A DNA stretch of 64,000 bases from Candidatus Palauibacter denitrificans (GTDB lineage: Bacteria; Gemmatimonadota; Gemmatimonadetes; Palauibacterales; Palauibacteraceae), in the NCBI GenBank assembly GCA_009841015.1, contig VXMQ01000009.1, forward strand, positions 9,942-73,941, written 5' to 3'. Below, one piece after another: positions 12,665 through 53,546 of the stretch. The number at the start of each line of letters is the position of its first letter. The stretch's first letter is position 1. The notes under the pieces are model-generated. The model worked only from the letters and a program-made list of their open reading frames with translations, ran no database searches and had not been told where the DNA came from. A program made the position numbers and the translations under genes.

Positions 12665-13917
12665 GGGCGGCCCCTCAGCCACCGGACCGGATCCACCGCG
12701 CGGGGCCCCACCGCCCCCGGTTCGTAGATCTGGAACTCGATATGCGGCCGGGTGGCGTCCCCGCCCACGTGTCCGATCGCCTCTCCCTCGCCGACCGGCT
12801 GTCCCTCGCGCACCGTGACGTCGCGGAGCTTCTGATAGGACGAGTAGAAGCCTCCGCCGTGGTCGAGGATCACCGTCTGCCCCGAGGCGCGCGCCGCCAC
12901 GGAAGCGACGGTGCCGCGGTCTACCGCGTACACGGGCGTGCCGCGCGGCGCCGCGATCCCGATCCCTTCGCGCGGGATTGTCGTGCGTCCTTCCCGCTCG
13001 GGCCCGAAGCGCCACAGGATCTCGCCCTCGACGGGCCAGGCGAGGCGACCGAGGTCCCCGGTCGTCAACGATGAGATCGATGACGTTCCGGCCGCGCGTT
13101 CCGCCGATCGGCGTCGTTCTTCCAGTCCTCCGATGAGCGCGCGCAGTTCGGCCTCTTCGGCCGCCAGCCGGGCCAGCGTCGACTGCGCCTCGTCGCGGCG
13201 GTCGGCGAAGCGGCGCAACCGCTCCTGCCGCTGCCCCTCCAACCTCTCCAGTTCGTCGTACTCCCGGAGGTGCTCCGCCCGCACCCCGGTGATGCGGGCG
13301 CCTTCCCGGCTCAACCCGCCGCGCTGGTCCGCGAGCCTGCCCTCCAGGTCCCTCACGTCTTCAAGGAGCATGCGGTCGAAGACGGCGACGTCGCGGAGGT
13401 ACCGGTAGCGATTGAGGAGGTCCGAGAACGACCGCGAGGAGAGGAGCACCTCGACGGTGCGGAGGGGGCCGCGCTTGTAGATGTCGCGGAGCCGCGTCCG
13501 CAGCACGACCCGGCGCGCCGTGAGTTCGTCGCGCGTGAGCAGCATCTCGCGCGTCATGGCCGTGAGTTGGTCGGAGAGCGCGAGCACCTGAACGTCGAAC
13601 TCGGCCAGGAGGCTCGCGGAGGCGTCGATCTGGCGTTCGATGTTCACGAGTTCGGCCGAATCGCCGCTGACCTCGCCGGCGATCCCCTGGAGTTCCCGTC
13701 GCAGCCGCTGCCGCTCTTCGCGGATGAGGTCGAGCCGCGCCTGGCTCTCGTCCAGGCGTCGCCGCACATCCGGCGACTCCTGGGCGATCGCACGGGCGGG
13801 CTCTGTCCACGTCGGGCTCGTCGCGACGGCGACGCTCATGGCCGCGACGAGCCGCGCCGTCCACGCACGGCATCGCGCCGGGGCGGGGGGGTGGCACGGG
13901 CTGCTAGGACGGGCCAT
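12661..13917 (-). CDS. M23 (LytM) family peptidase with a long coiled coil, EnvC-like murein hydrolase activator
   Basis: Coiled-coil N-half and a C-terminal M23 domain (GIGIAAPRGTPVYAV, ILDHGGGFYSSY, PHIEFQI). It lies directly downstream of ftsEX. Start is ATG 13917 (14-nt overlap with ftsX) or ATG 13839. Confidence 0.85.
   Translation of the reverse strand: MARPSSPCHPPAPARCRAWTARLVAAMSVAVATSPTWTEPARAIAQESPDVRRRLDESQARLDLIREERQRLRRELQGIAGEVSGDSAELVNIERQIDASASLLAEFDVQVLALSDQLTAMTREMLLTRDELTARRVVLRTRLRDIYKRGPLRTVEVLLSSRSFSDLLNRYRYLRDVAVFDRMLLEDVRDLEGRLADQRGGLSREGARITGVRAEHLREYDELERLEGQRQERLRRFADRRDEAQSTLARLAAEEAELRALIGGLEERRRSAERAAGTSSISSLTTGDLGRLAWPVEGEILWRFGPEREGRTTIPREGIGIAAPRGTPVYAVDRGTVASVAARASGQTVILDHGGGFYSSYQKLRDVTVREGQPVGEGEAIGHVGGDATRPHIEFQIYEPGAVGPRAVDPVRWLRGRP
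13892..13906 (-). repeat. Copy of the 15-nt motif TAGCAGYCCGTGSCA; its TAG is the ftsX stop codon
   Basis: The minus strand reads TAGCAGCCCGTGCCA. Confidence 0.6.
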
Positions 13918-14770
13918 ACGCGCGTCCCACTTCGCGGTGCACGGAGGAGGCGGCGGCGAGCAGGCCGAGAACGGCGGCGGCGGCGACGCCCGCCGCGGTC
14001 CAGGCGTGCGGGAGCCACGCGAGAGACTCGACGGCCACGAAACGCGCCGGGAAGACGATGTACGCGAGTCGCGTGACGCCGAGCGCGAGCAGCCCGCCTG
14101 CGAGCCCGGTGACCGCGCCTTCGAGGAGGAAGGGCCGCTGGATGTACCCCTCCCGCGCACCCACGATCTGCATGATCTCGATCTCTTCGCCGCGCGCGAG
14201 AACGGCCATGCGGACCGTCGTGACGATGAGCAGCACGGCGACGAGCGCGAACCCGCCGCCCAGGGCGAGCGCGATCCCCGCCGCCGCGGTCCGCAGCGCG
14301 AAGAGCCGCTCCACCCACTCGTCGCCGAAGCGCGCCTCCTCGATGAACGGATATGCCGCGAGGGCGCGCGCGGTCTCCGACACCGTTTCCGGTGTGCGGA
14401 AACCTTCCCGCAGCCTGAGGTGAAACGAGGCGGGAAGCGGGTTCACCTGCAGTGCCCCGTAGACGTTCGAGAACTCGACGAGATCGCGCCGCGCCCGCTC
14501 CAGCGCTTCGTCCTTCGAGACGTATCGCACCGATTCCACTGCCGGGAGCGCCTCCAACTCCCGCCGAGCGGCCCGCACCTGTTCCGGGCCGGCGTCGTCG
14601 AGCAGGTAGCCGACGACCTCCACGCGGCGTTCCACGTCGCCGATCGCCCCGCCGATATTGTGCGCGACGAGTCCGAACAGACCGAGGATCACGAGGCTGA
14701 GCCCGACCGCTCCGACGGAGAGGGCGCACAGCAGAGGTGTGCGCCGGAAGCCCGCGAGCGCCTCCCGCAT
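13904..14770 (-). CDS. ftsX: Cell division ABC transporter permease FtsX
   Basis: Internal ATG at 14770 (MREALAGFRR). Four TM segments and a periplasmic loop. Directly downstream of ftsE. Confidence 0.9.
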   Translation of the reverse strand: MREALAGFRRTPLLCALSVGAVGLSLVILGLFGLVAHNIGGAIGDVERRVEVVGYLLDDAGPEQVRAARRELEALPAVESVRYVSKDEALERARRDLVEFSNVYGALQVNPLPASFHLRLREGFRTPETVSETARALAAYPFIEEARFGDEWVERLFALRTAAAGIALALGGGFALVAVLLIVTTVRMAVLARGEEIEIMQIVGAREGYIQRPFLLEGAVTGLAGGLLALGVTRLAYIVFPARFVAVESLAWLPHAWTAAGVAAAAVLGLLAAASSVHREVGRAYGPS

Positions 14771-14775
14771 GGCTC

Positions 14776-15444
14776 TCACGCGGCGGAATCCCCGACGAGT
14801 CGTCCGTCCTGCAGCTCCAGTCGGCGAATCTCGCGGTGCCGGCGCACGAAATCCGCGTCGTGCGTGGCCATGAGCACGGCCGTGCCGAGGCGGTTCAACA
14901 TGCGGAACAGCTCGAACACCCCCCCGGAGGCGTCGGGATCGAGGTTCCCCGTGGGCTCGTCCGCGAGGAGGATGCGCGGTTCCGTGGCGAGGGCGCGCGC
15001 CACCGCGACCCGCTGCCGCTCGCCGCCCGACAGTTCCGAGGGTCTCGAGCTGGCGCGGGCGGCGAGCCCGACCTGACTCAGCAGCCGCTGGACGCGCCCC
15101 GCGATCTCGCGCCGCGGCGTCCCGATGACCTCGAGCGCGAAGGCCACGTTCTCCGCGGCGGTCATCCGTTCCAGCAGCTTGAAGTCCTGAAACACGAACC
15201 CCACGCGCCGCCGCAGCGCGGGGATGTCGCGGCGGCGGACCCGCCTCGAGTTGTAGCGCGAGACCTGAACCTCGCCTTCGGTCGGCCGGGTCTGGAAGTG
15301 GATCAGCTCGAGCACCGTCGACTTGCCCGCCCCCGACGGTCCCGTGAGGAAGGCGAACTCCCCCTTCCGAAGGCGGAACGAAACCCCGCGCAGCGCGTCT
15401 CCGGAGCGCGGGTAGGCTTTCGAGACGTCTCGCAGCGAGATCAT
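14776..15444 (-). CDS. ftsE: Cell division ATP-binding protein FtsE
   Basis: Walker A GPSGAGKST, ABC signature LSGGERQR and Walker B ILLADEPT. ATG 15444 shares ATGA with the pdxA stop. Confidence 0.95.
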   Translation of the reverse strand: MISLRDVSKAYPRSGDALRGVSFRLRKGEFAFLTGPSGAGKSTVLELIHFQTRPTEGEVQVSRYNSRRVRRRDIPALRRRVGFVFQDFKLLERMTAAENVAFALEVIGTPRREIAGRVQRLLSQVGLAARASSRPSELSGGERQRVAVARALATEPRILLADEPTGNLDPDASGGVFELFRMLNRLGTAVLMATHDADFVRRHREIRRLELQDGRLVGDSAA

Positions 15445-32041: not shown

Positions 32042-33045
32042 AGGCGATCCGCATCAGGGAGCCCGGCGGCCCGGAGGTGCTCGAACTCGTCGAGAGGGAC
32101 GATCCGGTCGCCGGGGCCGGCGAGGTGCTCGTCCGCGTGCGCTGCGCGGGCATCAACCGGGCCGATCTCCTGCAGCGGCTGGGCCGCTATCCGGCCCCCG
32201 CGGACGCCCCGCCGGACATCCCGGGGCTCGAGTTCGCCGGGGAGATCGAGGCGGTCGGGACGGGCGTCGCCGGCTGGTCCGCGGGCGATCGCGCGATGGG
32301 CATTCTGGGCGGCGGCGGCTACGCCGAGCGGGTGGCGGTCCCGGCCGGGCAGCTCCTGCCGGTCCCGCCGACGCTGAACTGGACCGAGGCCGGGGCGATC
32401 CCGGAGGTCTTCCTCACTGCGGCGGACGCCCTCATCGAGCGCGGCCGTCTGCGCCCCGGCGAGACCGTGCTCGTGCACACGGCCGGAGGCGGCGTGGGGA
32501 CCGCCGCCCTGCAACTGGCGCGCGCGAGCGGGGCGGGCGCGATCATCGCCACCGCGTCGGCGGCCAAGCTCGACCGCATCCGCGAAGCCGGACTGCCGCA
32601 CGACCTCACCGTCGACCGCCGGGCCGGCTCCTTCGCCGACGCCGTCGCGCGACACACCGACCGGGCCGGCGCCGACGTCATCCTCGACACCGTCGGCGCC
32701 CCGTACTGGGAGGCGAACATGGCCAGCCTCGCCACCCTCGGCCGCCTCGTCATCGTCGGTGTCATGGGCGGCATGAAGGTCGAGGCCAACCTGCGCACCC
32801 TGATGGGGAAGCGGGCGACCGTCGTCGGCACCGTCCTCCGCGCCCGCTCGAAGGCGGAGAAGGCCCACCTCACGGAGATGTTCGCGACCCGCTTCCTCCC
32901 CGGCTTCACGGCCCCGGAGACCGACCCTTCCCACCTGCGCCCGGTCATCGACCGCGTCTTCCCCCTCGCCGAAGCCGCCGAGGCCCACCGCTACGTCGAG
33001 TCCAACCAGTCCTTCGGCAAAGTCCTCCTCGACATCAATTCATGA
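32038..33045 (+). CDS. NADPH:quinone oxidoreductase (zeta-crystallin / MDR family)
   Basis: ATG 32038 shares ATGA with the upstream stop. Motifs EVLVRVRCAGINRADL, PGLEFAGE and HTAGGGVGTAA. Confidence 0.9.
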   Translation: MKAIRIREPGGPEVLELVERDDPVAGAGEVLVRVRCAGINRADLLQRLGRYPAPADAPPDIPGLEFAGEIEAVGTGVAGWSAGDRAMGILGGGGYAERVAVPAGQLLPVPPTLNWTEAGAIPEVFLTAADALIERGRLRPGETVLVHTAGGGVGTAALQLARASGAGAIIATASAAKLDRIREAGLPHDLTVDRRAGSFADAVARHTDRAGADVILDTVGAPYWEANMASLATLGRLVIVGVMGGMKVEANLRTLMGKRATVVGTVLRARSKAEKAHLTEMFATRFLPGFTAPETDPSHLRPVIDRVFPLAEAAEAHRYVESNQSFGKVLLDINS

Positions 33046-33052
33046 GCAGCCG

Positions 33053-33075
33053 CAGACAGGAGGGGTGCCTGTCTG
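33053..33075 (+). terminator. Weak hairpin after the quinone oxidoreductase gene, at the left island border
   Basis: cagacagg (33053-33060) pairs with cctgtctg (33068-33075) around a 7-nt loop. No U-tract. Confidence 0.25.
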
Positions 33076-33181
33076 TCGCCGCAGGTTCGGCGTGGGTCGT
33101 TGATGCCGCGTTGAGCCCTCGACAGTAGGGTCGACGGATCGCAGACTCCCCTTCACCCACTACCCTAATCTCGGTCAAGCG

Positions 33182-33892
33182 ATGATCGCCTACTGCCTCG
33201 CGGACGTGTTCAACCTGGACCTCTGGCCGCGCCACAAGCCGCCGGTGCAGCCCGAGGTTGAGGAAGGACTTCACGATCTCATCGGTCAGGTGATTTCCGC
33301 AGTGCCATCCGCCACCGAAGTCACCATCCGTCTGTACGGCGGTTGGCACCGGGAGACGCTCACGGCACCGGTGGACATGCGGCACATGATGAGCCGAGCC
33401 ATCGAGAACAATCCCAAGAGATACCGTGCGCAGAGGATTCGGGTTCAACTTGCAGACCACCCGATTTGGGATTCGGCAACCCGCCTCACGCGGTCGTTGG
33501 TCGAATCGCCGATGACACGAGTAAGCGTCCGCCTATCGCCAGCCGAACATTGCGCGTTTCCGCACAGCTGTACGCTTGACGCCCTTAGTAGTTGGTGTTC
33601 GGGCAAGTGCCCCGAGCAAGAGTGCCCGGTCCGGCTACGCCAAGTCGCTCAACGCAGGCGTCAGAAGATGGTGGATACGCTCCTCACGGCCGACGCGATG
33701 GCGATCATACAGGACGGTCGGGCGCACGCCGTCATCATCGCCAGCGACGACGCCGACATGATCCCCGCTCTGCTGGCCCTTTCGGCCTCCGACGTCTCGC
33801 TCACCCACCTTCGCCGTCGCGTCGCGGGTGGTCCGGTGACCCTGTATGATCATGTGTTCGAAAAGACCGGCAGCCACATCAGGAGCTGGTAA
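33182..33892 (+). CDS. NYN (LabA/DUF88-like, PIN-fold) domain protein with a Cys-rich insert; putative nuclease
   Basis: An N-terminal DxxN (CLADVFNL) and C-terminal acidic motifs MVDTLLTADAMAIIQDG and VIIASDDADMIPALL match the NYN layout. Five Cys lie in residues 124-148. The stop is 3 nt before the NACHT gene ATG. Confidence 0.6.
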   Translation: MIAYCLADVFNLDLWPRHKPPVQPEVEEGLHDLIGQVISAVPSATEVTIRLYGGWHRETLTAPVDMRHMMSRAIENNPKRYRAQRIRVQLADHPIWDSATRLTRSLVESPMTRVSVRLSPAEHCAFPHSCTLDALSSWCSGKCPEQECPVRLRQVAQRRRQKMVDTLLTADAMAIIQDGRAHAVIIASDDADMIPALLALSASDVSLTHLRRRVAGGPVTLYDHVFEKTGSHIRSW

Positions 33893-33895
33893 CGC

Positions 33896-36166
33896 ATGGA
33901 CCGATTCGCAGGAATCCGACGTGATGTCGCACCGTTCACGGACCCGGGCTCTGAAATCGAGGTCGGCGAGGGACTGCTACTTTGGCGGAAGGACGGCGTC
34001 GACCATAAGGCGAAGCTGTTGCAGGACCGCGGGCAAGATCTTCCCACTGTCAAGATCGGCAGGGGCGCGGCAATGCCGTATCCGGCCTTTCTTGCCAGCC
34101 ATCACCTGGCCGACCTGCGCAGTTTGGCAGAGTTCATTCTCAAGACGATCCCGCGTTCGGAGACGTACGTTGAGGCACGGGCGAGGCGAGCGGACGAGGA
34201 TGCACCTACCGAATCCTCCGGCACTGGTGAGAAGGCCGAAACTCTCATAGCAGACTTGGCGGACGACGCACCGTATGGGTCGACTCGAATGATCCTCGTT
34301 CGAGGTCCGGCGGGTTCCGGCAAGACGATGGCCCTCAAACACATGACCCGGGCGCGGGCCGACCGTTACTTGACCGGGACTTCAACCGCGCTCTTTTTCT
34401 ACATCGACGCGCAAGGACGTGCGCTATCCCGACTCGACGATGCCATGGCCCGGGATCTGCAGGATCTGCGTTCCCGCTTCTCCTACAACGCTGTACCCCC
34501 GCTAGTGAGACGAGGGCTCCTGGTGCCCGTGATCGATGGCTTTGACGAACTCCTCGGGAGCGGCGGATACGACGAGGCCTTCTCCTCTCTGACGGCGTTC
34601 ATTTCAAAGCTGGATGGGAGCGGTGCCGTTGTGGCGTCAGCCCGTTCGACCTTCTTCGACTACCATAAGTTCCGCGAGAATGCCGACAAGTACGCGCACG
34701 ATGGGAACTTGAACTACGAGGTCGAACCCGTCGAGATCGAGCCCTGGAGCGAGGCAGAGGCGGATGAACTCGTGGCCCTTACGGTGCCGAGTTCGACCGT
34801 GGCCCAGTTCAAGCGATTTCGGGCCGAGCTGGGCGAGTCCAACAAGGCCTTGCTCAAAAAACCGTTCTATGTCTCGCGGATCGCGGAGCTTCTAGAGACG
34901 GGCGACGAGATCGAGTCGCATGAGGCGATACTCGACACGCTCGTCAACGCTTTCCTGCAGCGAGAAAGTCGCCAGAAGTTCTTGGACAAGGACCGCCAGC
35001 CGCTGCTGGACGTAGACGGACATCGGAGGCTGCTCGTCATGCTTGCCGAGGAGATGTGGTGGCTGGAAACTCGGCGACTCGACTTGGAGACCGTAAGAGC
35101 CACGGCCGAACTTCTGCTGGAGGAATTAGGCGTACCCCCCCGTACGGCGTGGCAGGTGATCGGGCGAATGCCATACTACGGCTTGCTTCGCGCCGACGAT
35201 GCGGGCGTCGGACACCTTCAGTTCGAACACGAGACGTTCTACGGGTACTTCCTCGCCGAGGCCTTCAAGCGCTGCATCGAGGGCGAGCGGGGGGAACTCC
35301 GAAGGTTCTTGGCACGCTCCGTGCTTGACGACGCCACGGTCGATGAAGCCATCGGTCGGTACGGCGGAGACGTGGACGCCTGCACGGACGCCGCCATCAA
35401 GATGTGTGAAGTGTTGCGGCGCGGATTGGGAGACAGCGTGGCCCGGCAAAACGCCGGTCGGTTCGTCGCCCGAGCCGTCAAGGCGTGCGGCGAATTGCGG
35501 CCTCGCACGCGATTGAAGCACCTCTATTTTGACCAGGAGGATTTCGGCCAAGCGGCGCTGGTCGAGCCTCATTTCCAGAACTGTTTCTTCGACCGAGTCG
35601 ACTTTACCGCACTCAAGATGGTCCGACCGGCCTTTGGGGAATGCAACATTCAGATGCCGAAGTTGAGTCTAGTGGGCACGCGGCTAGAAGATGCGGATCC
35701 GGGTCTGTTGGACATCGTGACCGGCGTCGAAATCGTCTTGAACGGTGATTCGTCTGGAGAAGCACCGTCGAGGTTGTACGCCCCCGATCAAGTCCGGAAG
35801 ATTCTAGTGCGGCTGGGAATGAAGGGGGAGGACCGCCCCGCGACCGTATCGGAGTATAGTGACCGACAGCAGGCTCGCATACGGCTCGTCGAGCGGTTCC
35901 TTCTCAAGATGGAGCGCCGCTTCTACGTAGCGGAAGAGGACTTCGGCCGCCTGGGCTTGGGGAGCGATCCTGATTGGGATGAGGTGTACGAGCTGCTAAA
36001 GGATCGGAGGGTGGTGAGAATCGAGACTCCGCCCATGTCCGGTCGCCCGAAGCCCCTTGTACGTCTCGGCTATCCCGCAGACTTGATCCGGCGTGGCGAA
36101 AACATCGACGACGGGAGCCGCCCGGCGATCCAGCGCTTCTGGCAAGAATTGTTGGACGTCACCTGA
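33896..36166 (+). CDS. NACHT-type STAND P-loop NTPase with a pentapeptide-repeat-like C-terminal region
   Basis: Walker A ILVRGPAGSGKTMAL, Walker B LLVPVIDGFDELLGS and a following VVASARS segment. The C-terminal stretch FQNCFFDRVDFTALKMVRPAFGECNIQMPKLSLVGTRLEDAD is pentapeptide-like. Confidence 0.8.
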   Translation: MDRFAGIRRDVAPFTDPGSEIEVGEGLLLWRKDGVDHKAKLLQDRGQDLPTVKIGRGAAMPYPAFLASHHLADLRSLAEFILKTIPRSETYVEARARRADEDAPTESSGTGEKAETLIADLADDAPYGSTRMILVRGPAGSGKTMALKHMTRARADRYLTGTSTALFFYIDAQGRALSRLDDAMARDLQDLRSRFSYNAVPPLVRRGLLVPVIDGFDELLGSGGYDEAFSSLTAFISKLDGSGAVVASARSTFFDYHKFRENADKYAHDGNLNYEVEPVEIEPWSEAEADELVALTVPSSTVAQFKRFRAELGESNKALLKKPFYVSRIAELLETGDEIESHEAILDTLVNAFLQRESRQKFLDKDRQPLLDVDGHRRLLVMLAEEMWWLETRRLDLETVRATAELLLEELGVPPRTAWQVIGRMPYYGLLRADDAGVGHLQFEHETFYGYFLAEAFKRCIEGERGELRRFLARSVLDDATVDEAIGRYGGDVDACTDAAIKMCEVLRRGLGDSVARQNAGRFVARAVKACGELRPRTRLKHLYFDQEDFGQAALVEPHFQNCFFDRVDFTALKMVRPAFGECNIQMPKLSLVGTRLEDADPGLLDIVTGVEIVLNGDSSGEAPSRLYAPDQVRKILVRLGMKGEDRPATVSEYSDRQQARIRLVERFLLKMERRFYVAEEDFGRLGLGSDPDWDEVYELLKDRRVVRIETPPMSGRPKPLVRLGYPADLIRRGENIDDGSRPAIQRFWQELLDVT

Positions 36167-36182
36167 TGCAGCCGTGACCGGG

Positions 36183-37163
36183 CTACGAATCGAACCGAAG
36201 CTCCCCGCTCCCGAGTGGCTCAACACCAACTTCGCGAATCCCGTTGCAGATGAGCCCCGCGAGCCAGTGGGCGCGGTGATATCTGAGAGTCTTGCGACCT
36301 CCTTCGGTGAGGTAGGTCACCTTGAGTCGCTGGGTGATGCAATTGAGCTGTGATCGGTCGCTCAGGTCCCACCAGCTGAGTCGCACGAAGCTGACCGCTG
36401 CGAAGACATGACGCCGGTTCTCCAGTATCCTCCTCGATGATTCCGAGTATATCCGCTCGTGGATCCGCTTGGAGAGAGACGTATGCGCCTCACGCAGCGC
36501 GTCAAGGACGGGCGGGCCAGCGCCGAGCGTCATGGTCATGTCCGCCGGAAGACAATCCGTCAGATCCACGACCAACGCACCGCCGTGGAAACGCTTTCGT
36601 AAGCGACCGTCTTCCTGCCTAAGGGTGAGTTGCCTTGCTGCCTTTGAAACCATGTTGCCGACATGGCTGAGGCTTTGAGGCCGCTTGACCTCGACCGAAT
36701 ACTCCATGGTGTTCTTCTTGATTATCACATCTGGACTTTTTTCGTCCTTCTTCAGATTGACGATGACCGGTGCCGTGCCAGCGGCGGCAATCATGGCGCT
36801 AGCCCAAAGTTCACTCTGCGCGCGATAAGCCGCGTGAGGGGTGGTTCCAAGTGCGCCGCCGATTGCGCGTCGGAGAGACGTGACGACCGGGTCAGACCGC
36901 TCGGATCCGAGCATATTGCCGATCACAAAAAAACTCTGCGCGTCGCGAACAGCATGGGCGATTTGCTTGAGTTGGTCAGGTGAAGCCGGGAAAGCCTTGC
37001 CTGAGGGGACTGAGTGCAGCACATCGATGGCCCTAAAGAGGCGGCTGCCAGGGGATACGGAGAACCCTGCCCATTTCTCGATCTTTCTTATCGTGTCGTT
37101 GAGGCGGTCAGCGAGAAGGGGCATCGCTTGGGGTGTAAGCTGTCTGTCGGAGGTCGACGTCAT
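36183..37163 (-). CDS. Hypothetical protein, possible PD-(D/E)xK nuclease fold; last gene of the nine-gene operon
   Basis: Internal ATG at 37163, 31 nt after the DUF499 stop. SPDVIIKKNTMEYSVEVKRPQ fits a D...E-x-K motif. No strong Shine-Dalgarno. Confidence 0.5.
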   Translation of the reverse strand: MTSTSDRQLTPQAMPLLADRLNDTIRKIEKWAGFSVSPGSRLFRAIDVLHSVPSGKAFPASPDQLKQIAHAVRDAQSFFVIGNMLGSERSDPVVTSLRRAIGGALGTTPHAAYRAQSELWASAMIAAAGTAPVIVNLKKDEKSPDVIIKKNTMEYSVEVKRPQSLSHVGNMVSKAARQLTLRQEDGRLRKRFHGGALVVDLTDCLPADMTMTLGAGPPVLDALREAHTSLSKRIHERIYSESSRRILENRRHVFAAVSFVRLSWWDLSDRSQLNCITQRLKVTYLTEGGRKTLRYHRAHWLAGLICNGIREVGVEPLGSGELRFDS

Positions 37164-37194
37164 CGGGCGTGGTATCGCTTGGCGGGGGCTCGGG

Positions 37195-40100
37195 TCAGGT
37201 GGATTTGAGGTCGGGAGCGGTGTCGGCGAGGGCGGCGTCCACGGCGGTGCGTTCCTCGTCCGATACGTTGCCGGTGAGCGTGACGGAGACCTCGAAGCCG
37301 AGTTCGGCGGAGCCGGCGGCGGCGAGGAGACTCGGTGCCCTGTCGGCCAATTCCTGTAGCTGTGCCACATCGAGTTTAGCGGCAGAAGACGGCGGCGGTG
37401 GTGACGGTGGTGCGTCCGTGCGCACTCTTATCTGGAGCTGTCTGGCCTGGTCGTACTCGCAGTTGGGGTCGACGCTTCCGTCCGCCAGCACGAGCCAGTG
37501 CGCGTTGATCGCAGCGCGGATTCCATCCCGCACGAGCCCCCAGGGAAGACTGGTTGCCCGTTCTTGCGAGAGCGCCTGCGCGATGGCGAGACCGTTCGCC
37601 GCGTCGTCTTGCCACGCAGCGGCTCGCATCGCTTCGGAGAGAAGATCTTGCGGCGTGAGCCGGTCCGGCGGCGGGCGTAGCATCGCCTTGTCGTTCAGCG
37701 CCCCAGCGGGCACCGGCTCTTTCCACGACGTGGCGGGTGGATTCGTGAGCCAGACTGTCCCGAGTTCAACGGCCTGCTCCACGGCTTCCAGCACCGTGTC
37801 GGCGGGGCAGGCTGGGACCGTGACCATATCGTCGTAGTGGTCGCGGGGGATCGTCGCGACGTGACCGCCCGCGAAGTAGTTGAGGAGCGTGGCCACCGGC
37901 AGGGCCGAACTGGCCTCGCCGCCGTCGTCGTCGGTCCACAGGCTGGGCAGCACTCCGGGAGCGAGCAGCGCCTCGGGCAGCCGGGTGAGTTCCGCCTTCT
38001 CAGGCAGGACGATCTCGAGCGCCTCATCTCCCGCAGCTTCCGCCTCCACCGATTCGCGCCACCACGTACGAAAGCTGCCGTCGGGCCGCCTCAGCCTAGC
38101 GACGAACAGGCCCTCCCGGACACCAGCCAACACCGTGTCGGTGACGAGCTTCGGCCTCAGTACCTTCGGGAGCCGCGGATGACGCGCGAAGGCGCCCGCC
38201 AACTGGCTGGCGAAACGGGCGTCCTCCCCCTCCTGCCATAGGTCGTATGGCCCCCCGGGAAGGAGGGCCTCGGCGTTCACCGGCGTATCCGTAAGGCGCG
38301 TCTTCTCGTGTCCCTTGATCTCCTCGAAGAGCGGCTGACCGCTGGCGGGGAGTTTGAAGGCGTGAACGCTGTTTTCTGCGTCCACCGTCACGACGATCCC
38401 ATAGGCTTGGCGAATCACGCTTGGCAACTCCGCCTGGGTGTTGCTCTTCTGGCGCCGGAGACGTTGCGACCGCACCGGATCCACCGTTTGGGTCGTGAGT
38501 TGCGATTCGACGTCCTCCCAACCGAGTAGCGCCCGCACTCGCGTGCGTGCCGCATCCAAACCCTCGCGCGACGGCACGGCGATGACCACCGCGTTGCGGT
38601 TCACGCGGGGCCGGTTCGAGCCCGTGGTCTCGTCGAGGAACTGCTTGGCGATTCTGCTCGGTTTTCCCGACTCCGACGCCGCGTCTGGGCCGAGGATCAC
38701 GTACCGGAAGCTGCCGTCGTCGCCGACCTCTCGCGGCGACTTAGGCAACATGTGCACAACGGCCCCGGCGGCGGCCGCGCCGCTCGTAAGAGGCTTCGTC
38801 TTACGGATCAAATCCTCCAGCCGCGCCTCCACCATGTCGTCAGTGACGCGGTCCTTGCATGCCTGGTCGTGCATCTGTTTCAGGTTGGGTGCGTTACCCA
38901 GGCGCCACGACTTGGGGAGGCCCCGCTCGGCCCCGTAGCTGGCTGCGTCGTCCCCGATGTCGGCGTCGTCAAGGAACCAGGAGGTGTCTCGCCAGCGGAG
39001 CAGCCCCTTCTCGAGTTCGATTCTGTCCGGACCCGCGCCGCCCACCAGACGCAGCAACTCGGGGGTGTGCGCCTTCTGGCCCACCGGCTGCGAATAGAGG
39101 AAGATGGCGACGACGGCCTGCTCCGCCTCGCGTTCCGGCTGAAGCGCCGAGCACTCACGCTGCACCTCCCGGGCCTTGTCCAATTCGGCCTCGAGCAGGG
39201 GCACCCATTCCGTCTTCTTGCCCTGCACGGCGTCCGTTGACGCGACGCCCGCGAGTTCCCGCACCGCCTCGGAGACGTTCGCGGAATCGGGTTCAGCGAG
39301 GAGAACGGCCGGACCGACCAGCGGACTCCGGTCCCATGACTCTGCGTCCCGGAGAGCCGTGGCGAGCGTACGCAGAATCCCGCGCGTGCGCTGGAAGCTC
39401 TCGATCTGCGTCCACCGGCTGTACAGAACGTCAGTCACGTCCGGGTGGAACGGAAAGCTGTGCAGGAACCGCTCCTCGGCCTCTTTCGTTCCGCGTCGCG
39501 TCGTTTCGTCAAGCTTGGCGATGCCCTTCACGATCCCGATTACCTGCGGCTTGTAGCTCTGCGGATCGCGGATGCTCTCGGACTCGAAGAAGCGGCGGCG
39601 AAGCACTTCCGCCACGTCCTCCCTCTGCACGGGCTGCACGCCCTCCTCGCGCTGACGGCGAAAGATGTCCGCGATGTCGCGAAGTATCTTCTTGCCAAGG
39701 GCATCGGTCATTCGCGACGGATCCGTGGCGAGGATGGATGCGACGATCGCCGCCCGGTCGATCTTCGTCACGGCCTGCGTGAGGTACTGGAAGAAGTTTC
39801 GCAGGTGCGCCACCCAATCCTCGGCCACCCCCGCCTTGGCGTGGGCGTACATCATGACTTCGTCCAGGAGAATGAGCGTGGCCGTCCCGTCCCGTTGCTG
39901 TCGCTCGATCAGCTTGACGAGGAGGGGCTCGGCCGGCGGCGTGTCGCGCTCCTCGTCCTCGTTGTTCGCGTGCAGCAGGCGCAGGCCCTCCGCCCCCGCA
40001 AGCTGGAACGCGAGCACGCTCCACGGGTGTTTGAGCGTCCGCCGCTCTCCGTCCGGGGCGCGCACGCCCTCAATGCCCTTCTCCACGTCGATCTTGTCGA

Positions 40101-40500
40101 AGCAGAGCGCTGCCGTGGCGGCCTGGGGAAGGCGGGAGTTCGCATGCTCACGGAACTCCCGCACAGCAGCGATGTCCGGCAGCCCGTCGGGGTCGTGGAA
40201 CAGGTGGTGGAGGGTGATGAGCGTGTGTGTCTTGCCGCCGCCATACGTCATCTCGAGCTGGCGGACAGCCTTGGTGTTCTGGCCCGCCAGTCGTCCCGCG
40301 ACATCCCTTACCAGCTCCCGCAGCGCGTGCGTGGGGTAGGTCAGCGCGAAGAACTTCTCCCGATCCTCGTAGATGGGCCGCTTCCCCGCCTCCGTGACCA
40401 CCTCGTGCAGGTCGGCGGCGAACTCGGCCAGCGAGAGCTCCCCCGAACGAAGTTCCGGCTTGAGACGAACGATCTGATGCCAAGGAACGAGATTCGACAT
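37195..40500 (-). CDS. DUF499 family ATPase (COG1483-like AAA+/P-loop protein)
   Basis: Internal ATG at 40500 (MSNLVPWHQIVRLKPEL). Walker A-like EMTYGGGKTHTLITLHHL and Walker B ATLILLDEVMMYA, 1101 aa. The N-terminal layout is typical of DUF499 as I recall it. Confidence 0.85.
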   Translation of the reverse strand: MSNLVPWHQIVRLKPELRSGELSLAEFAADLHEVVTEAGKRPIYEDREKFFALTYPTHALRELVRDVAGRLAGQNTKAVRQLEMTYGGGKTHTLITLHHLFHDPDGLPDIAAVREFREHANSRLPQAATAALCFDKIDVEKGIEGVRAPDGERRTLKHPWSVLAFQLAGAEGLRLLHANNEDEERDTPPAEPLLVKLIERQQRDGTATLILLDEVMMYAHAKAGVAEDWVAHLRNFFQYLTQAVTKIDRAAIVASILATDPSRMTDALGKKILRDIADIFRRQREEGVQPVQREDVAEVLRRRFFESESIRDPQSYKPQVIGIVKGIAKLDETTRRGTKEAEERFLHSFPFHPDVTDVLYSRWTQIESFQRTRGILRTLATALRDAESWDRSPLVGPAVLLAEPDSANVSEAVRELAGVASTDAVQGKKTEWVPLLEAELDKAREVQRECSALQPEREAEQAVVAIFLYSQPVGQKAHTPELLRLVGGAGPDRIELEKGLLRWRDTSWFLDDADIGDDAASYGAERGLPKSWRLGNAPNLKQMHDQACKDRVTDDMVEARLEDLIRKTKPLTSGAAAAGAVVHMLPKSPREVGDDGSFRYVILGPDAASESGKPSRIAKQFLDETTGSNRPRVNRNAVVIAVPSREGLDAARTRVRALLGWEDVESQLTTQTVDPVRSQRLRRQKSNTQAELPSVIRQAYGIVVTVDAENSVHAFKLPASGQPLFEEIKGHEKTRLTDTPVNAEALLPGGPYDLWQEGEDARFASQLAGAFARHPRLPKVLRPKLVTDTVLAGVREGLFVARLRRPDGSFRTWWRESVEAEAAGDEALEIVLPEKAELTRLPEALLAPGVLPSLWTDDDGGEASSALPVATLLNYFAGGHVATIPRDHYDDMVTVPACPADTVLEAVEQAVELGTVWLTNPPATSWKEPVPAGALNDKAMLRPPPDRLTPQDLLSEAMRAAAWQDDAANGLAIAQALSQERATSLPWGLVRDGIRAAINAHWLVLADGSVDPNCEYDQARQLQIRVRTDAPPSPPPPSSAAKLDVAQLQELADRAPSLLAAAGSAELGFEVSVTLTGNVSDEERTAVDAALADTAPDLKST

Positions 40501-40510
40501 GGAGCCTCGC

Positions 40511-40672
40511 CTATGCGAGCAAGTCCACGGACAGGCAACCCTCAACCGCCTCGCGGACGTCTTGCAGAAGTTCGTGGAGTGACTCGCCCTGGGATACGCA
40601 CCCCCGGATAGCCGGCACTTCGGCCCAGTAGCCGCCTTCCTCTGCCCGATGAACAACGATCTTCAGTATCAT
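40511..40672 (-). CDS. HicB-like (UPF0150) small protein, 53 aa; not in the supplied ORF track
   Basis: My own translation is MILKIVVHRAEEGGYWAEVPAIRGCVSQGESLHELLQDVREAVEGCLSVDLLA. GGAGGTG lies 3 nt upstream of ATG 40672. TAG stop at 40511-40513, 10 nt before the DUF499 ATG. The pattern E-x-GGY-x-AEVP-x(3)-GC-x-SQG matches the HicB N-terminal domain. Confidence 0.65.
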   Translation of the reverse strand: MILKIVVHRAEEGGYWAEVPAIRGCVSQGESLHELLQDVREAVEGCLSVDLLA

Positions 40673-40788: not shown

Positions 40789-43700
40789 TCAGAAGAGCGA
40801 CCTCTGCGCCGGCGCTGCTCGCGACCCTTGGGAGGATGTTGCCGCGCTCCCGTCGCGCAGGTGGTTCTGCACCGATTCCAGCAGCGCCCGCTCCTCAGAG
40901 CCGCGTTCGGCCAGCTCGATAATGGCCTGCACCACGCTGGCGAACAGTTCGTGCTTCCACAACCCGCGGTCGCTCAGGTAGTTGTTGACGCGGGCCTGTT
41001 CTCCGGTCTTCCAGAGTTGCATGACCCTGTGCACGCAGTCGATGAGCGGTGGGGGCGCGCCATCAGGCATGGGCTGACCCAAGCGAGTGCCGCCCCGTTG
41101 GTTCCAACCCTTAAGGCGCACCGCACTGCCCGAGGTCGGTGCTCCCTCCGAGCTCTCCTCGTCGGACGTGGCGGCCGAGCTCCTCCCCCCGCGGGCGAGA
41201 AGATCATGCCTGCTCGCCAGGTCGGCGTCGGACAGGTTGCACGAGAGCGCGTACAGGATGCACGCGCCGGCGGGGGCCGCCTCCGAGCCGAAATCGTTGC
41301 GGTGCAGCAGGTAGTAGGTCGTGACGTCGTCCAGCTCCGTCGCCTCGCCGTTCCGTTGAGAGAGCAACTGGCCTACGATGAAGCCGACCACCATGCGTCG
41401 GACGTGTCGCAAGAAGTCGGCTACGGTCAGAACCTCACCTGGCCGGTCGGCTCGCTTGACGACCGGATGTCGGCTGAACGCCTCCAAAGCGGGTCCGGTG
41501 GCCGACCACACGAAGTCGGGTCCGCGAATTCCCGCATCCCAGAAGTCGCGTAGCCGTTGCGTGATTCTCTTCCGCATCTCGGAGAGGACGTTACGCTCCC
41601 ATCCGGGACGCCCTGGTGCCGAGCGTTTCCGGCACACGAGCCAAATCGACGACGCGAGAGCGGCGGAGGACATGGCGCGCTGCCGGGTCTGCATCTCGGT
41701 CTGAATCGGCCACGAGCCCGTCACCACGAAGCCCGCCCGGATCAACGCTGACACAAGCGTTTCCCACGCATCTGGGCTCTTGTTCGCGAACACAATGACC
41801 AGCCGCCCATCGTCGCCGAGGGCATCGTGGAAGCGACAGAACGCCCGAGCCATCCCATCTTCGTAGTTGTGCTTGGAAGCTTCCGTGTCCCCCTCGAAAC
41901 GGCTCGCGTCGTCGATGAGTTCGCCGTCGGATGCGCCCGGCTCCCACTTCGGACCCAACGGGTCGGCGAAGGCCGAGTCCGTGACGGACGAGAGACCGTG
42001 TAGAACGCGGCGAAGCCAAACCTGAAAGAAGTCCATCAGGTCAGAGTACGGGATCGCATCGTAGTAAGGCGGGTCCGTGCAAATCACGTCGAGACCGTTC
42101 GGCTGGGCGGCGATCGCGCTCCGGGTCTCAACTTCCACGGAGGGTGCATGCGACCCGGCGGGCAGGACATGGTCAACGCAACGCGCGACCCAATCGAGCA
42201 TGCCCTTGAACCCACCGGTCGTGGCGGACAGCGGGTTCACCTCGCAATAGTCCCATACCATCGGTGGCGCGAAGCGCACGAACGTGTGGCCGAGCTTTTC
42301 TCCGCTATTGTGCCACGAGCAGACCGCACTGCTGTAGTCGGTCAGCTTGCTGAACGCACATGCTAGGTATGCCGTCAACGCCCCCGGCCAATCGTCCAAG
42401 TTGCCGTCCATTTCGGCGCAGACGGAGCGGATCTCGCGTACGAACGTCCCCAATGCGAGCAGTTGACGGCGAGTGAACAGTTTCTCCCAAGAGTCGAGGC
42501 CGTAGCCATCAACCGAAAACGCACGAGAAGCACCAATTCCGGCTTTCGGGGTTGGCTCGTCGGGTGTGCCGAAAGGCACATCCGAATAGAGCGCGTCGAG
42601 TTCGCTCTGGCTCACGCCAGCGGCTTCGATGTCTCGCTCGGTGGGGGGGCGATACTCCTTGCCGGTCTGTCCAGCGAGGACCACGGCCGTCATCCGCGCT
42701 CCCAGTCGTCCCGACCGCCCTTGGGCGCGCAACTCGGCCATACTGGTCACGGCCCCGCAGTTCGGGCACCCGACTCCGCTAGAACTCATCGTGCCAGCGC
42801 CGAGGGATTCGTCGTGTCGCCGCCGCTGAGCGACCGATCCCGATCCCTGCGGCACGTCCGGCTCCACGCCGAACTCGACTCCGCTTCCATCGGCCCGTTT
42901 CGTCATCGTCAAGAGGACACGCTTGGCAGGGTTGGTCTTCTTGCATAGCCAACGCGTCTTGAGGAGCGGGATCTCGGCTCGACAGCCGCCGCACTCGGCG
43001 GTGCGCGCCCACAGATAGGCCACAACCGGCTTGACCACCCAACGCGGGTTGTTGTCGTCCTTCAGGTAGACTTCGTCAAAGTCGGCGTTCAGCGCCTCAG
43101 CCGTTACACGCCCGTCCGCATCCGGCTCGAGCAGACGAGGCACTCGCCGCTTGTATGGCTTGGGTTCCGCCTGCGACGCCCGCGACCGGCCCTTGCGCGG
43201 CACGGGCTCGAACTCGGCGTAGGTGGGGTATCGGGCGGCCAACTTCCGCCTCACGTTCTCTAGTACGCGAAGTCCCCACGCTCGGACGTGCCAGGCGAAA
43301 TCCGCCTTGACGTTGGCGTCGTCTCGAAGCACGGATGAGGAGATCTGCACGTCACCGCCGTCGCGGTGTCCCAGTTCGGCGAGCGCGTTTCTGATCTGAA
43401 CCTTCGTTCGCGCACCGCGCGACTTCACCAACGCGGTAGCGAAGTCGCGGTCTCCGAGCGCGAACTCTGGAAGCGGCCTCTCTTCTCGACCCACCAGCCG
43501 CGGGTAGTGGAGCGTGCAGCGCAGTATAAACCACGCCACGGGATTCAGGTCGGAGGCGAACGTCTCGCACCCAAGCCGCATCGCCTCCAGCGGAATCGCG
43601 CCGCCGCCCGCGAACGGATCCAGCACCCGTGGCGCCCGCCCGCCGAACGCCTCCCGTATCTCCTCCCGCAGACGATCCAACTCGGGATCGGTTTCTCGCC

Positions 43701-43995
43701 CCCAGTGCAGGATGCCGCCCGCCGTCTCCTTGAGTTTTGGATCCTCCCCTCCGCCCCTAAGCTCCTTAGGCACCAACCGCCCCGCGATGCGCCGCCCCAG
43801 CCTGCGCCGTCCCTCGTCGTCACCGGGGTCGGGCAGCAGAGTGGCCAGTAGCATGGCTCGGCTTGCCGCCAGCGGCCTCCGCGCCGGCCATATATGCAGC
43901 GTGGAGATGTGCCCGTGCCGCACGTTCTTCTCATGCACCGAGTCCAACGAGATTTGCCGCAGCGGCAGCGTCGCCTCAGCCAGACGTGCCATCAT
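40789..43995 (-). CDS. DUF1156 domain DNA methyltransferase (COG1743-like amino-MTase with Zn-ribbon inserts)
   Basis: DUF1156 signature HEKNVRHGHISTLHIWPARRPLAASRA, AdoMet motif VLDPFAGGGAIPLEA and catalytic VICTDPPYYD. Cys pairs ECGGCRAE and VGCPNCGAV. ATG 43995 shares ATGA with the KAP stop. The track ORF starts at GTG 44004. Confidence 0.9.
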   Translation of the reverse strand: MMARLAEATLPLRQISLDSVHEKNVRHGHISTLHIWPARRPLAASRAMLLATLLPDPGDDEGRRRLGRRIAGRLVPKELRGGGEDPKLKETAGGILHWGRETDPELDRLREEIREAFGGRAPRVLDPFAGGGAIPLEAMRLGCETFASDLNPVAWFILRCTLHYPRLVGREERPLPEFALGDRDFATALVKSRGARTKVQIRNALAELGHRDGGDVQISSSVLRDDANVKADFAWHVRAWGLRVLENVRRKLAARYPTYAEFEPVPRKGRSRASQAEPKPYKRRVPRLLEPDADGRVTAEALNADFDEVYLKDDNNPRWVVKPVVAYLWARTAECGGCRAEIPLLKTRWLCKKTNPAKRVLLTMTKRADGSGVEFGVEPDVPQGSGSVAQRRRHDESLGAGTMSSSGVGCPNCGAVTSMAELRAQGRSGRLGARMTAVVLAGQTGKEYRPPTERDIEAAGVSQSELDALYSDVPFGTPDEPTPKAGIGASRAFSVDGYGLDSWEKLFTRRQLLALGTFVREIRSVCAEMDGNLDDWPGALTAYLACAFSKLTDYSSAVCSWHNSGEKLGHTFVRFAPPMVWDYCEVNPLSATTGGFKGMLDWVARCVDHVLPAGSHAPSVEVETRSAIAAQPNGLDVICTDPPYYDAIPYSDLMDFFQVWLRRVLHGLSSVTDSAFADPLGPKWEPGASDGELIDDASRFEGDTEASKHNYEDGMARAFCRFHDALGDDGRLVIVFANKSPDAWETLVSALIRAGFVVTGSWPIQTEMQTRQRAMSSAALASSIWLVCRKRSAPGRPGWERNVLSEMRKRITQRLRDFWDAGIRGPDFVWSATGPALEAFSRHPVVKRADRPGEVLTVADFLRHVRRMVVGFIVGQLLSQRNGEATELDDVTTYYLLHRNDFGSEAAPAGACILYALSCNLSDADLASRHDLLARGGRSSAATSDEESSEGAPTSGSAVRLKGWNQRGGTRLGQPMPDGAPPPLIDCVHRVMQLWKTGEQARVNNYLSDRGLWKHELFASVVQAIIELAERGSEERALLESVQNHLRDGSAATSSQGSRAAPAQRSLF

Positions 43996-45341
43996 TCCTG
44001 CCACAGCAGATCGATGTCAGCGCAAATCTCCGCCATCTCCCTGCGCCCGCTGTAGAAGGTGGCCGAACTCCAATTCGCCCGTTCCTCCGCTGTCAAGTGC
44101 TCCTCCCCGTCGGCTGCCGAAAACGTCCAATACCGTTTGATCCTGTCGATGGTCTCTTCTCCAACACCTGGCCATTGGTCGAACTTCAGGAACGCCATCG
44201 CATCCCGATATCCGAGTCGCTCGCGTGCGGCGTCGTGATAAAGTTCGGGTGCCAGGGTTCGCATGACGCACAGCCCAGCGGAAAGGGCCCGGTGGATCTC
44301 GTTCGGGAATCCTCCCTTGCTCCTTTTAAGCAGCGCCAGGTTTAGCATTAGCCGTTCCTGGCTACGAAACGTAAGGTCGTGGACTTGAACGAGACTGTTG
44401 ATTGTCATCGTCGGGTTTTGGCCATGATTCCAAGACAGGCCCATCAGTTCCGCGAGGTGTCGGAGATACCGCGTGTGAGATGTCTCGGGTCCGCGGCTCA
44501 AGATCCTTCGAATGTCGAACCGAAGCTGGAAGAACTTATCCAGATACTGGTCGGCTTTCTCAAGGCCGTATGCCCGCTTCACCATGGCCGCCAACCCCTC
44601 TAGGTGGGTCACGAGCACGAAGCAGATTCCGTCCACGGTGAAGAGGTGCTTGACACGTTCGAGCACGTTCAGGGCGTAGGACGGGCGGCATCGATCCAGC
44701 TCGTCAATCACGAATACCAACGGCGCCTTGCCTTGCTCACCGTCACCCGTGTTGGCGACGGCGGCGGCGAGTGCGTCTCGGAAACCGTCGACACATTCCA
44801 CCTGAGTCGCGGCCTGCTCGAGAGATTCCTCGACAAACGCCTCAATGTCGTCCGTTTCGGCTGACCTCGCGTCCCGTACGTGCTGCTGAAGGTCGGCCAG
44901 CGACAAGAGGCCGCCGGTGCCGGTGCGCAGGGCCGCGTCTGCCACGATGCGGGGCATCGCCCGCACGAGAGGCGTCGCGGTTCGGACGAGAGATGCCTTG
45001 GAGTCTTTCAAGCGAGGGCCGCTCGAATCGGATGCCTTCAGGAGGTGGCCGAAGAGGGGGAAGAACGCGTCGTCGAGGTGATCGTGCTCAAAGGCATCGA
45101 AGTACACGACGGCGTGTCCGCGCTGCCGGAGTAGGCCTGCCCACTGTCTGGCGAATACGGACTTGCCGCTTCCCCAGGGTCCATCGAGAACGATAACGGC
45201 ATGGCCCGCGAGGTCGCCGACGATGTTGGCAAGCCGTTCACCGGGCGCCTTCGCTTGGAAGATATCGGACTTCTCAAACCCGGCGGTGTCACCGATGTCG
45301 AGGGGCCTCGGCGCGAGAAGGAGTTTGGCGGAACGACTCAC
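43992..45341 (-). CDS. KAP family P-loop NTPase
   Basis: Walker A VLDGPWGSGKSVFA and Walker B LVFVIDELDRCRPSYAL. GTG 45341 shares GTGA with the upstream stop. Confidence 0.85.
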   Translation of the reverse strand: MSRSAKLLLAPRPLDIGDTAGFEKSDIFQAKAPGERLANIVGDLAGHAVIVLDGPWGSGKSVFARQWAGLLRQRGHAVVYFDAFEHDHLDDAFFPLFGHLLKASDSSGPRLKDSKASLVRTATPLVRAMPRIVADAALRTGTGGLLSLADLQQHVRDARSAETDDIEAFVEESLEQAATQVECVDGFRDALAAAVANTGDGEQGKAPLVFVIDELDRCRPSYALNVLERVKHLFTVDGICFVLVTHLEGLAAMVKRAYGLEKADQYLDKFFQLRFDIRRILSRGPETSHTRYLRHLAELMGLSWNHGQNPTMTINSLVQVHDLTFRSQERLMLNLALLKRSKGGFPNEIHRALSAGLCVMRTLAPELYHDAARERLGYRDAMAFLKFDQWPGVGEETIDRIKRYWTFSAADGEEHLTAEERANWSSATFYSGRREMAEICADIDLLWQE

Positions 45342-53300: not shown

Positions 53301-53546
53301 ATGCGCACGGTTGAAATCCATGACGCCCGGAAGCACCTGTCCCGCCTCGTCCAGGAGGCGGCGGACGGCGACCCGTTCGTCATCACGCGGGACGGCAGGC
53401 CGTTGGTCGAGGTGGTGTCGATCAGCACGCCGGGGCCCGCGACGGCTCGCCGAACCGGATTCATGGTCGGCGAAATCGCAGTTCCGCCGGACTTCGATCG
53501 AATGGGATCGACGGAGATCGAGGCGCTGTTCGACGCCGATCCGTAG
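53301..53546 (+). CDS. Phd/YefM-family type II antitoxin (VapB-like), no cognate toxin gene
   Basis: MRTVEIHDARKHLSRLVQEAADGDPFVITRDGRPLVEVVSI and a C-terminal VPPDFDRMGSTEIEALF tail. GAGGGA lies 5 nt upstream of the ATG. It is followed only by 16 nt before a convergent gene. Confidence 0.8.
   Translation: MRTVEIHDARKHLSRLVQEAADGDPFVITRDGRPLVEVVSISTPGPATARRTGFMVGEIAVPPDFDRMGSTEIEALFDADP

Follow-up and report, generated by a model that had tools for sequence, protein, structure and literature searches.

A Predicted Nuclease Gene and an NLR-Like ATPase Gene Lie Side by Side

We analyzed a 64,000-nucleotide (nt) stretch of Candidatus Palauibacter denitrificans DNA (contig VXMQ01000009.1, positions 9,942 to 73,941 of the forward strand; referred to below as the window) for the properties of two adjacent genes, here designated gene A and gene B. 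Gene A is predicted to encode a nuclease of the NYN/LabA type, and gene B a STAND (signal transduction ATPase with numerous domains) NTPase of the NACHT type, similar to NLR (nucleotide-binding domain plus leucine-rich repeat) proteins. A first-pass annotation, made from the DNA letters by a model, had proposed that the two open reading frames (ORFs), lying 3 nt apart, make up an anti-phage module with its effector encoded in trans; the coordinates that it gave for both ORFs proved to be exact (Table 1).

The motifs D8-V-F-N11, MVDTLLTADAMAI (residues 163-175), and ASDDADMIPAL (residues 187-197) of gene A correspond to the D-x-x-N, K-x-V-D...D, and S-D-D-x-D acidic set of the NYN/LabA family (PF01936). 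The Pfam NYN model matched the window protein at 24.3 bits, a borderline value given the cut-off of 24.2, and covered residues 148-205 only; within the gene A family it matched 48 of 60 members, the best with an E-value of 6.4e-10. The match to gene A is partial because a 64-residue insert interrupts the domain. When the insert was removed from five family members and the Pfam NYN search re-run, the model aligned from profile position 3 or 4 to position 126 of 145 in three of the five, with the N-terminal strand included and E-values down to 7.1e-11. The NYN layout that had been read from the motifs, all of which are present, therefore passes the Pfam model and extends over the full domain after excision, and the PIN/NYN-type match on which the first-pass annotation had made its proposal depend was found.

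Conservation in gene A was determined from alignments of 41-60 homologues. Residues D8, N11, R50-L-Y-x-G-W55, K162, D165, D171, D192, and P195 are invariant, S188 and D190 nearly so, and we take the conserved acidic residues to be the acidic set of the NYN/LabA proteins. The insert contains the five cysteines that had been noted at nt 33551-33625 (residues 124, 130, 139, 143, and 148). The insert-bearing members that were aligned always have C124 and C143 and nearly always C130 and C148, C139 not being conserved, a pattern that points to a likely four-cysteine metal site, in keeping with the zinc binding suggested earlier. The insert itself is not universal, being absent from one clade of A proteins that is described below. 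The AlphaFold (AF2) model of gene A has a predicted local distance difference test (pLDDT) score of 92.4, and its fold matches in BFVD included a LabA-like protein (probability 0.99) and a NYN domain protein (probability 0.97), both at an E-value of about 0.05. Judged by its sequence, gene A encodes a divergent NYN/LabA-type nuclease whose predicted catalytic residues are intact. We found 121 database homologues of gene A, and the family comprises at least 491 clusters (50% identity, E <= 1e-30) in 1.84 billion representatives.

Gene B, for which 74 database homologues were found, matched the Pfam NACHT model (PF05729) at 32.5 bits (cut-off 26.7), and the model matched 34 of 48 family members at E <= 0.001. 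In these 48 sequences G140, G142, K143, D214-G-F-D-E218, R250 (sensor 1), and F443-x-H445 (winged helix) are invariant; a re-check in 117 gene B sequences from three groups found G140, K143, D214, E218, and R250 to be invariant and H445 to be present in 115. Foldseek analysis of the AF2 model (pLDDT 87.6, predicted template modeling score 0.77) gave NLRC4 (E 3.5e-15), NLRP3, and NOD2 as the top matches, at E-values of up to 1e-11, or up to 1e-10 with the NAIP/NLRC4 complexes included. The NACHT Walker A and B motifs of the second ORF are thus present, as had been reported, and invariant, with the Pfam and predicted-fold results in agreement, and gene B represents a complete NLR-like NACHT protein by its motifs and by its predicted fold. 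Its N-terminal domain carries conserved F14-x-D16, A72, L74, and A78, among which a catalytic-looking set was not recognized. The first-pass annotation had called this N-terminus uncharacterized, a description that still applies: profile searches of residues 1-112 and 600-756 against the PDB gave no significant sequence match.

The pentapeptide-like stretch previously placed at nt 35569-35700 agrees with a beta-helix in our analysis (Table 1). The gene B family profile matched McbG-like/AlbG, Qnr, MfpA, and EfsQnr chains at E-values from 9.4e-12 to 3e-7. Pfam Pentapeptide_4 matched 33 of 48 family members, the window protein by itself being sub-threshold (E 0.017), and the gene B model shows periodic 3-residue strands at 539-600. 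Family profile and model together indicate that the stretch is a genuine beta-helix of pentapeptides. Sequence variation in gene B is greatest in this helix and the C-terminal region (mean pairwise identity 0.22) and least in the nucleotide-binding domain (0.39). This variability fits a C-terminal sensor under diversifying pressure, without proving that sensing takes place there.

Qnr, MfpA, AlbG, and McbG are DNA mimics that protect gyrase. They share with gene B the repeat type and the right-handed beta-helix, and they are the best profile matches of its repeat, but they have 8-10 turns in a dimer, whereas the repeat of gene B has about three turns, is not notably acidic, and is one domain of an NLR. 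We found no support for a Qnr-like DNA-mimic role of the gene B helix, given its approximately three turns and its net charge of -2.2 per 100 amino acids (aa). The NCBIfam model of the Hailong effector HalA also matched the pentapeptide region weakly (E 0.0022), and the gene B family profile matched the solved HalA structure 9nyi (E 6.8e-8); this is probably generic repeat similarity.

Genes A and B Are Linked and Co-Diverge

The Shine-Dalgarno sequence of gene B lies within the last codons of gene A, and the gap between the gene A stop and the gene B ATG is 3 nt in the window. The median distance over 95 complete pairs is likewise 3 nt; 26 of the 95 overlap by 4 nt, and all but one fall within 42 nt. 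The Shine-Dalgarno sequence inside gene A and the tight spacing indicate that A and B are translationally coupled.

A scan seeded with gene A, using one genome per species (49 loci), found a full-length B homologue (~745-790 aa) directly downstream on the same strand in 47 loci; the other two are L012, where A is frameshifted and B is missing, and L049, which is only a fragment. A search seeded with gene B covered 80 metagenome and 7 IMG/VR loci, 79 of which had room for an upstream A; in 64 of these, A directly preceded B. The pair is thus conserved as neighbors in both directions, a point on which the earlier proposal had been made to hinge. Pairwise identities of A and of B correlate with r = 0.89, indicating that the two genes co-diverge. 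A third conserved gene was not found among the clusters of neighboring ORFs, in which only A and B reach 47 loci and the next cluster reaches 7. The gene at 36183-37370 (gene C) was considered as a third component and rejected, as it occurs only in the closest relative, L001, and is part of the neighboring Hma operon.

The window copies of A and B align over their full length to relatives at 74-75% identity and are free of frameshifts. Decayed or broken copies were seen elsewhere. In L038 (Dechloromonas), B is split into ORFs of 578 and 165 aa (10711-12940); L012:10001-10710 (uncultured Gemmatimonadales), the locus with the frameshifted A, is a decayed copy of the cassette; and the B genes of L075 and L078 are decayed copies that start only at residue 162.

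Table 1. Positions in the window of genes A and B, their parts, and the left border of the island.
Feature	Position	Strand	Description
Gene A	33182..33892	+	236 aa, ATG start, TAA stop at 33890-33892; NYN/LabA-type nuclease, predicted effector
Insert of gene A NYN domain	33458..33649	+	Residues 93-156; putative zinc-binding knuckle, cysteines conserved in alignments
AGGAG Shine-Dalgarno of gene B	33881..33885	+	Within last codons of gene A; read from sequence
Gene B	33896..36166	+	756 aa, ATG start; NACHT STAND NTPase, NLR-like, predicted sensor and switch
Gene B N-terminal domain	33896..34231	+	Residues 1-112; one helix and small beta-sheet (model)
NACHT module	34238..35230	+	Residues 115-445; nucleotide-binding domain, helical domain, winged helix
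Walker A, G140-x-G-K143-T	34304-34327	+	GPAGSGKT, residues 137-144 of gene B
Walker B, D214-G-F-D-E218	34514-34549	+	LLVPVIDGFDEL, residues 207-218 of gene B; VIDGFDEL
Helical spacer domain	35231..35488	+	Residues 446-531 of gene B; model secondary structure
Pentapeptide-repeat beta-helix	35489..35704	+	Residues 532-603 of gene B; ~12 pentapeptides, three turns; candidate sensor surface
C-terminal alpha/beta domain	35705..36166	+	Residues 604-756 of gene B; uncharacterized, may be a second sensor or a tether
Region upstream of gene A	33046..33181	+	136 nt; left edge of low-GC island
9-bp GC-rich hairpin (gcagacagg...cctgtctgt)	33057-33082		Directly 3' of stop of upstream quinone-oxidoreductase-like gene, where GC drops

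Distribution and Genomic Context of the Pair

The A-B pair was found in at least seven phyla, its carriers belonging to the Gemmatimonadota, Acidobacteriota, Beta- and Gammaproteobacteria, Actinomycetota, Bacteroidota, Bacillota, and Thermodesulfobacteriota. The window pair is most closely related to copies from Candidatus Palauibacter-like Gemmatimonadota, to which its A and B are 69-75% identical. In a tree of 119 gene B proteins, the branching does not follow taxonomy: Acidobacteriota sit within Gemmatimonadota, a Clostridiales copy clusters with prophage copies next to a proteobacterial clade, and a Desulfobacterales copy falls within a clade of Bacteroidota copies. This patchy distribution is consistent with horizontal transfer.

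A drop in guanine-plus-cytosine (GC) content, from 0.72-0.75 to about 0.61, occurs at position 33000 of the window and persists until about 49000, indicating that the pair opens a foreign island. We examined the neighbors of the pair by running PADLOC on 283 ORFs around 47 genome loci, a qualitative scan without a background rate. The matches comprised type I restriction enzymes, methylases, and specificity subunits; type IIG and type III restriction-modification; mad2 (10 proteins) and mad5 of MADS; HmaC; Orf5/HEC-06/SspE; GajB of Gabija; a DRT reverse transcriptase-helicase; PbeA; and several PDC candidates. These data are strong evidence that the A-B pair sits recurrently in defense islands of unrelated genomes.

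Two IMG/VR contigs were also examined. In L131, the pair lies between two integrase genes; in L133, its neighbors are fragments of an integrase and of a DNA methyltransferase, together with tail genes. In both contigs the setting is that of a variable, integrase-proximal part of a prophage.

Proposed Mode of Action

From its context and by analogy with characterized NACHT and other STAND proteins, the A-B pair is most likely a defense system. The reading that we favor, with moderate confidence, is that it represents a two-gene, horizontally mobile NLR/STAND-type anti-phage module in which a NYN effector acts in trans and brings about abortive infection. The proposal builds on the domain identities, the intact catalytic residues, the linkage across phyla, the co-divergence, the defense-island and prophage context, and the patchy distribution described above. 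Gene B would serve as sensor and switch, kept inactive with ADP bound. Its pentapeptide beta-helix and C-terminal alpha/beta domain may read a cue that comes from the phage or arises on infection, leading to nucleotide exchange at the intact NACHT site and then to oligomerization of gene B. Gene A would be the only destructive enzyme of the pair, a metal-dependent endonuclease of the NYN fold, most likely an RNase, usually equipped with the four-cysteine insert. Translational coupling would have it made in fixed proportion with B; it would probably be bound to or recruited by B, whose oligomer would activate or concentrate it. Once active, gene A might cleave cellular and phage RNA, so that the infected cell would no longer support the phage.

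Comparison with Known Systems

Bacterial NACHT (bNACHT) proteins have been found by experiment to act against phage and as a rule have a nuclease or another effector fused to them (Kibby et al., bioRxiv 10.1101/2022.07.19.500537, later Cell 2023). The fused effectors listed in that study include RNases (Schlafen, HEPN), DNases, and others, NYN not being among them, and the bNACHT genes tested lie only rarely in operons, which are poorly conserved. In the same study, pentapeptide repeats are named as one of the types of C-terminal sensor repeat in bacterial NACHT proteins, and the pentapeptide sensor that the first-pass annotation had counted toward an uncommon configuration is thus not without precedent. 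Gene B resembles the bNACHT proteins in its central NACHT module with a D-G-x-D-E Walker B, its C-terminal region of sensor type, and its occurrence in defense islands, and nucleases such as that predicted for gene A are among the usual bNACHT effectors. The difference lies in how the effector is encoded: in bNACHT proteins it is fused at the N-terminus (rarely the C-terminus) or is absent (clade 14), whereas the A-B pair has its only enzyme as a separate, strictly linked upstream gene.

The Avs (AVAST) proteins are antiviral STAND NTPases that were reportedly described by Gao et al. in 2020 and 2022. They have in common with the proposed A-B system the STAND ATPase, C-terminal sensing (of phage proteins), oligomerization, a nuclease or other effector, and abortive infection. 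Unlike the A-B pair, however, they consist of one polypeptide, to which the effector is fused, have sensors that are mostly TPR-like, and belong to STAND clades other than the NACHT family of gene B. A 2026 survey of STAND proteins classifies 589 clades (Nature 2026, PMC13581612; bioRxiv 10.64898/2026.01.04.697583); its text makes no mention of NYN, pentapeptide repeats, or operon partners.

A precedent for an NLR-like sensor with separate effectors, encoded in the same operon and recruited in trans, is provided by the CARD-NLR-like/gasdermin systems (PMC10312443; PMC13236601). In these systems, CARD-like adaptors reportedly recruit a protease and a gasdermin, whereas the effector predicted here is a nuclease; a Death-fold or effector-associated domain (EAD) adaptor was not detectable on A or B. 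PIN RNases with an attached zinc-binding domain have been noted as effectors of NTP-dependent conflict systems and are sometimes fused with NACHT (Kaur et al. 2020, PMC7159879). Gene A differs from these in being NYN rather than PIN proper, in having its cysteine cluster internally rather than in a C-terminal domain, and in being unfused to an NTPase among the family members listed. A full-text literature search found no description of a two-gene system of NYN and NACHT, and as far as we could find the A-B pair is an unnamed, probable NLR-type STAND defense module with a separately encoded NYN nuclease.

Absence of Gene A in One Clade and Alternative Interpretations

Several observations weigh against the proposed defense module, or against parts of it. 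No PADLOC v2 or NCBIfam model matches A or B as a family, and the case for a defense role is therefore one of context and analogy. Foldseek analysis of the gene A model against the PDB gave weak Rossmann-like matches only (best E 0.018), and a PDB search with the gene A sequence profile found no relative; the NYN assignment draws on sequence profiles, insert excision, and the weak BFVD fold matches. Among the top 150 of the 491 gene A family clusters, all with lengths of 151-360 aa, no A-B fusion was seen, and physical contact thus gains no Rosetta-stone support. Searches of the PLSDB plasmids and INPHARED phages by tblastn with the window B or a proteobacterial B gave no match. The sequencing runs that hold the window sequence are sponge metagenome DNA only and supply no RNA evidence for it.

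The remaining points come from the gene B tree, in which 10 of the 119 B genes have no gene A and form a single clade with a support of 100. These solo B proteins are of the same length as the others and keep all ATPase residues as well as F14, D16, A72, and A78, and no common replacement partner was found beside their genes. The sister of the solo-B clade (support 90) consists of 14 B genes whose A has no cysteine insert (its members include L053, L054, L059, L063, L064, L070, L074, L076, and L079). The insert-less A proteins are approximately 165-200 aa long and keep all NYN catalytic motifs, indicating that the cysteine insert is dispensable in one lineage; in the remaining tree, A has the insert. 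The simplest history is that the insert was lost first and that the nuclease gene was then lost in one sublineage. The insert-loss clade of A and the nuclease-loss clade of B are new here. From the residues conserved in solo B, gene B apparently persists, and probably functions, without a linked NYN. Gene B may thus have an output of its own, gene A being accessory rather than the sole effector. As to the nuclease effector in a separate gene that the first-pass annotation had proposed, the separate linked gene stands, whereas its role as effector is qualified by this clade.

Two types of gene adjoin solo B genes, each in two loci. A Prok-JAB plus ThiF (E1-like) gene lies directly upstream of solo B at L073:536-1948 and L083:2416-3933; such a pair of domains occurs in the ubiquitin-like conjugation modules of defense systems, and the gene could be an alternative partner of solo B or a mere neighbor. 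A gene for Schlafen-AlbA_2 plus HATPase_c_4 adjoins solo B at L066:708-2441 (+) and L082:514-1944 (-); in L066 the overlap of its stop with the start of B points to an operon. Since each was seen only twice, we rejected both as a common replacement effector of the A-less clade.

A further reading, which we offer tentatively and regard as doubtful, is an inflammasome-like two-component design in which the ~110-aa N-terminal domain of B, with its F-x-D signature, would recruit the free-standing NYN RNase. The series on the gene B tree, from NYN with insert through NYN without insert to no linked NYN with B intact, would make this domain a generic output adaptor. If so, the N-terminal domain would work with exchangeable or unlinked effectors, and bacterial NLR signaling would not be tied to fused effectors. 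The same series leaves the idea that the N-terminal domain docks A unproven, the signature being kept where A is gone.

The monophyly of the solo-B clade and its lack of a shared partner can also be read to mean that gene B is a self-sufficient NLR-like defense protein, with its N-terminal domain as the output and the NYN as an accessory. That domain might be a new effector, or it might connect B as an adaptor to host factors or to unlinked effectors, and the NYN might act as amplifier or second arm or process the nucleic acid sensed by B. Solo B retains the Walker A and B motifs, sensor 1, the winged-helix His, and the conserved N-terminal residues, and there is a parallel in the effector-less bNACHT01-like clade, which still protects (Kibby et al., 10.1101/2022.07.19.500537). 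We nevertheless consider this unlikely. The N-terminal domain has neither a catalytic-looking conserved set nor a homologue; gene A is present, coupled, and co-diverging in approximately 81-96% of loci, a stronger linkage than an optional accessory would lead one to expect; and solo B could make use of an unlinked nuclease or be decaying.

A tight two-gene operon with the nuclease gene first, found in islands and in prophages with integrases adjoining, and degraded copies such as L012 (frameshifted A without B) and L038 (split B), would also be expected of an addiction or toxin-antitoxin-like module that stabilizes mobile islands, the NYN being the toxin and the NACHT protein an ATP-dependent neutralizer with no dedicated phage sensing. 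This is quite improbable, however, in that no antitoxin comes near the complexity of a STAND protein with 756 aa, several domains, and a variable repeat sensor, the NACHT architecture is that of signal-dependent switches, and it is solo B that occurs, solo A being essentially unseen in the A- and B-seeded loci. A housekeeping or regulatory role, as an RNA-processing enzyme under NTPase control that has no connection with mobile-element conflict, finds some encouragement in the general knowledge that NYN/LabA proteins include non-defense RNases but is very improbable given the patchy distribution incongruent with phylogeny, the low-GC island location, and the consistent placement among restriction and other defense genes and in prophages.

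Significance of a Separately Encoded Effector

Bacterial NLR-like proteins are evolutionary relatives of the innate immune receptors of animals and plants, in which recruitment in trans is the principle of inflammasomes and of resistosome-helper networks. To our knowledge, the effector of characterized bacterial NLR-like proteins is almost always a fused domain. If the proposed defense module is correct, the A-B pair would provide a simple bacterial model, widespread across phyla and prophages, for the recruitment of an effector in trans by an NLR-like sensor. A NYN RNase would also join the list of abortive-infection effectors; the NYN fold is shared by the animal antiviral factors Regnase-1, N4BP1, and KHNYN. 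The natural series of systems with insert, without insert, and without nuclease is ready material for dissecting the system.

Immediate Surroundings of the Pair in the Window

The hairpin at the left edge of the low-GC island (Table 1) is probably the terminator of the upstream oxidoreductase gene and marks the left border of the island. A promoter scan upstream of gene A found no sigma-70-like promoter. Direct or inverted repeats of at least 11 nt flanking the island were not found, including any that would pair with the right border near 53500; the 64-kb window holds no tRNA, and positions 32500-37500 hold no Rfam family.

The island also contains an Hma system, identified by PADLOC and NCBIfam, with HmaC/DUF499 at 37195-40656 and an HmaB/DUF1156 methylase at 40789-44004. 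The last gene of the Hma operon, the rejected gene C, which has no family match, is convergent with gene B, and 16 nt separate its stop from the end of gene B at 36166. No terminator-like site is present on either strand between 36166 and 36183, so transcripts of the two systems may run together. In the closest complete genome (L001:13007-15721), the homologue of this Hma-operon gene is split into two pieces, corresponding to residues 340-393 and 70-340. The pieces lie approximately 1.7 kb apart and enclose a 585-aa ORF (13165-14922), probably an insertion element.

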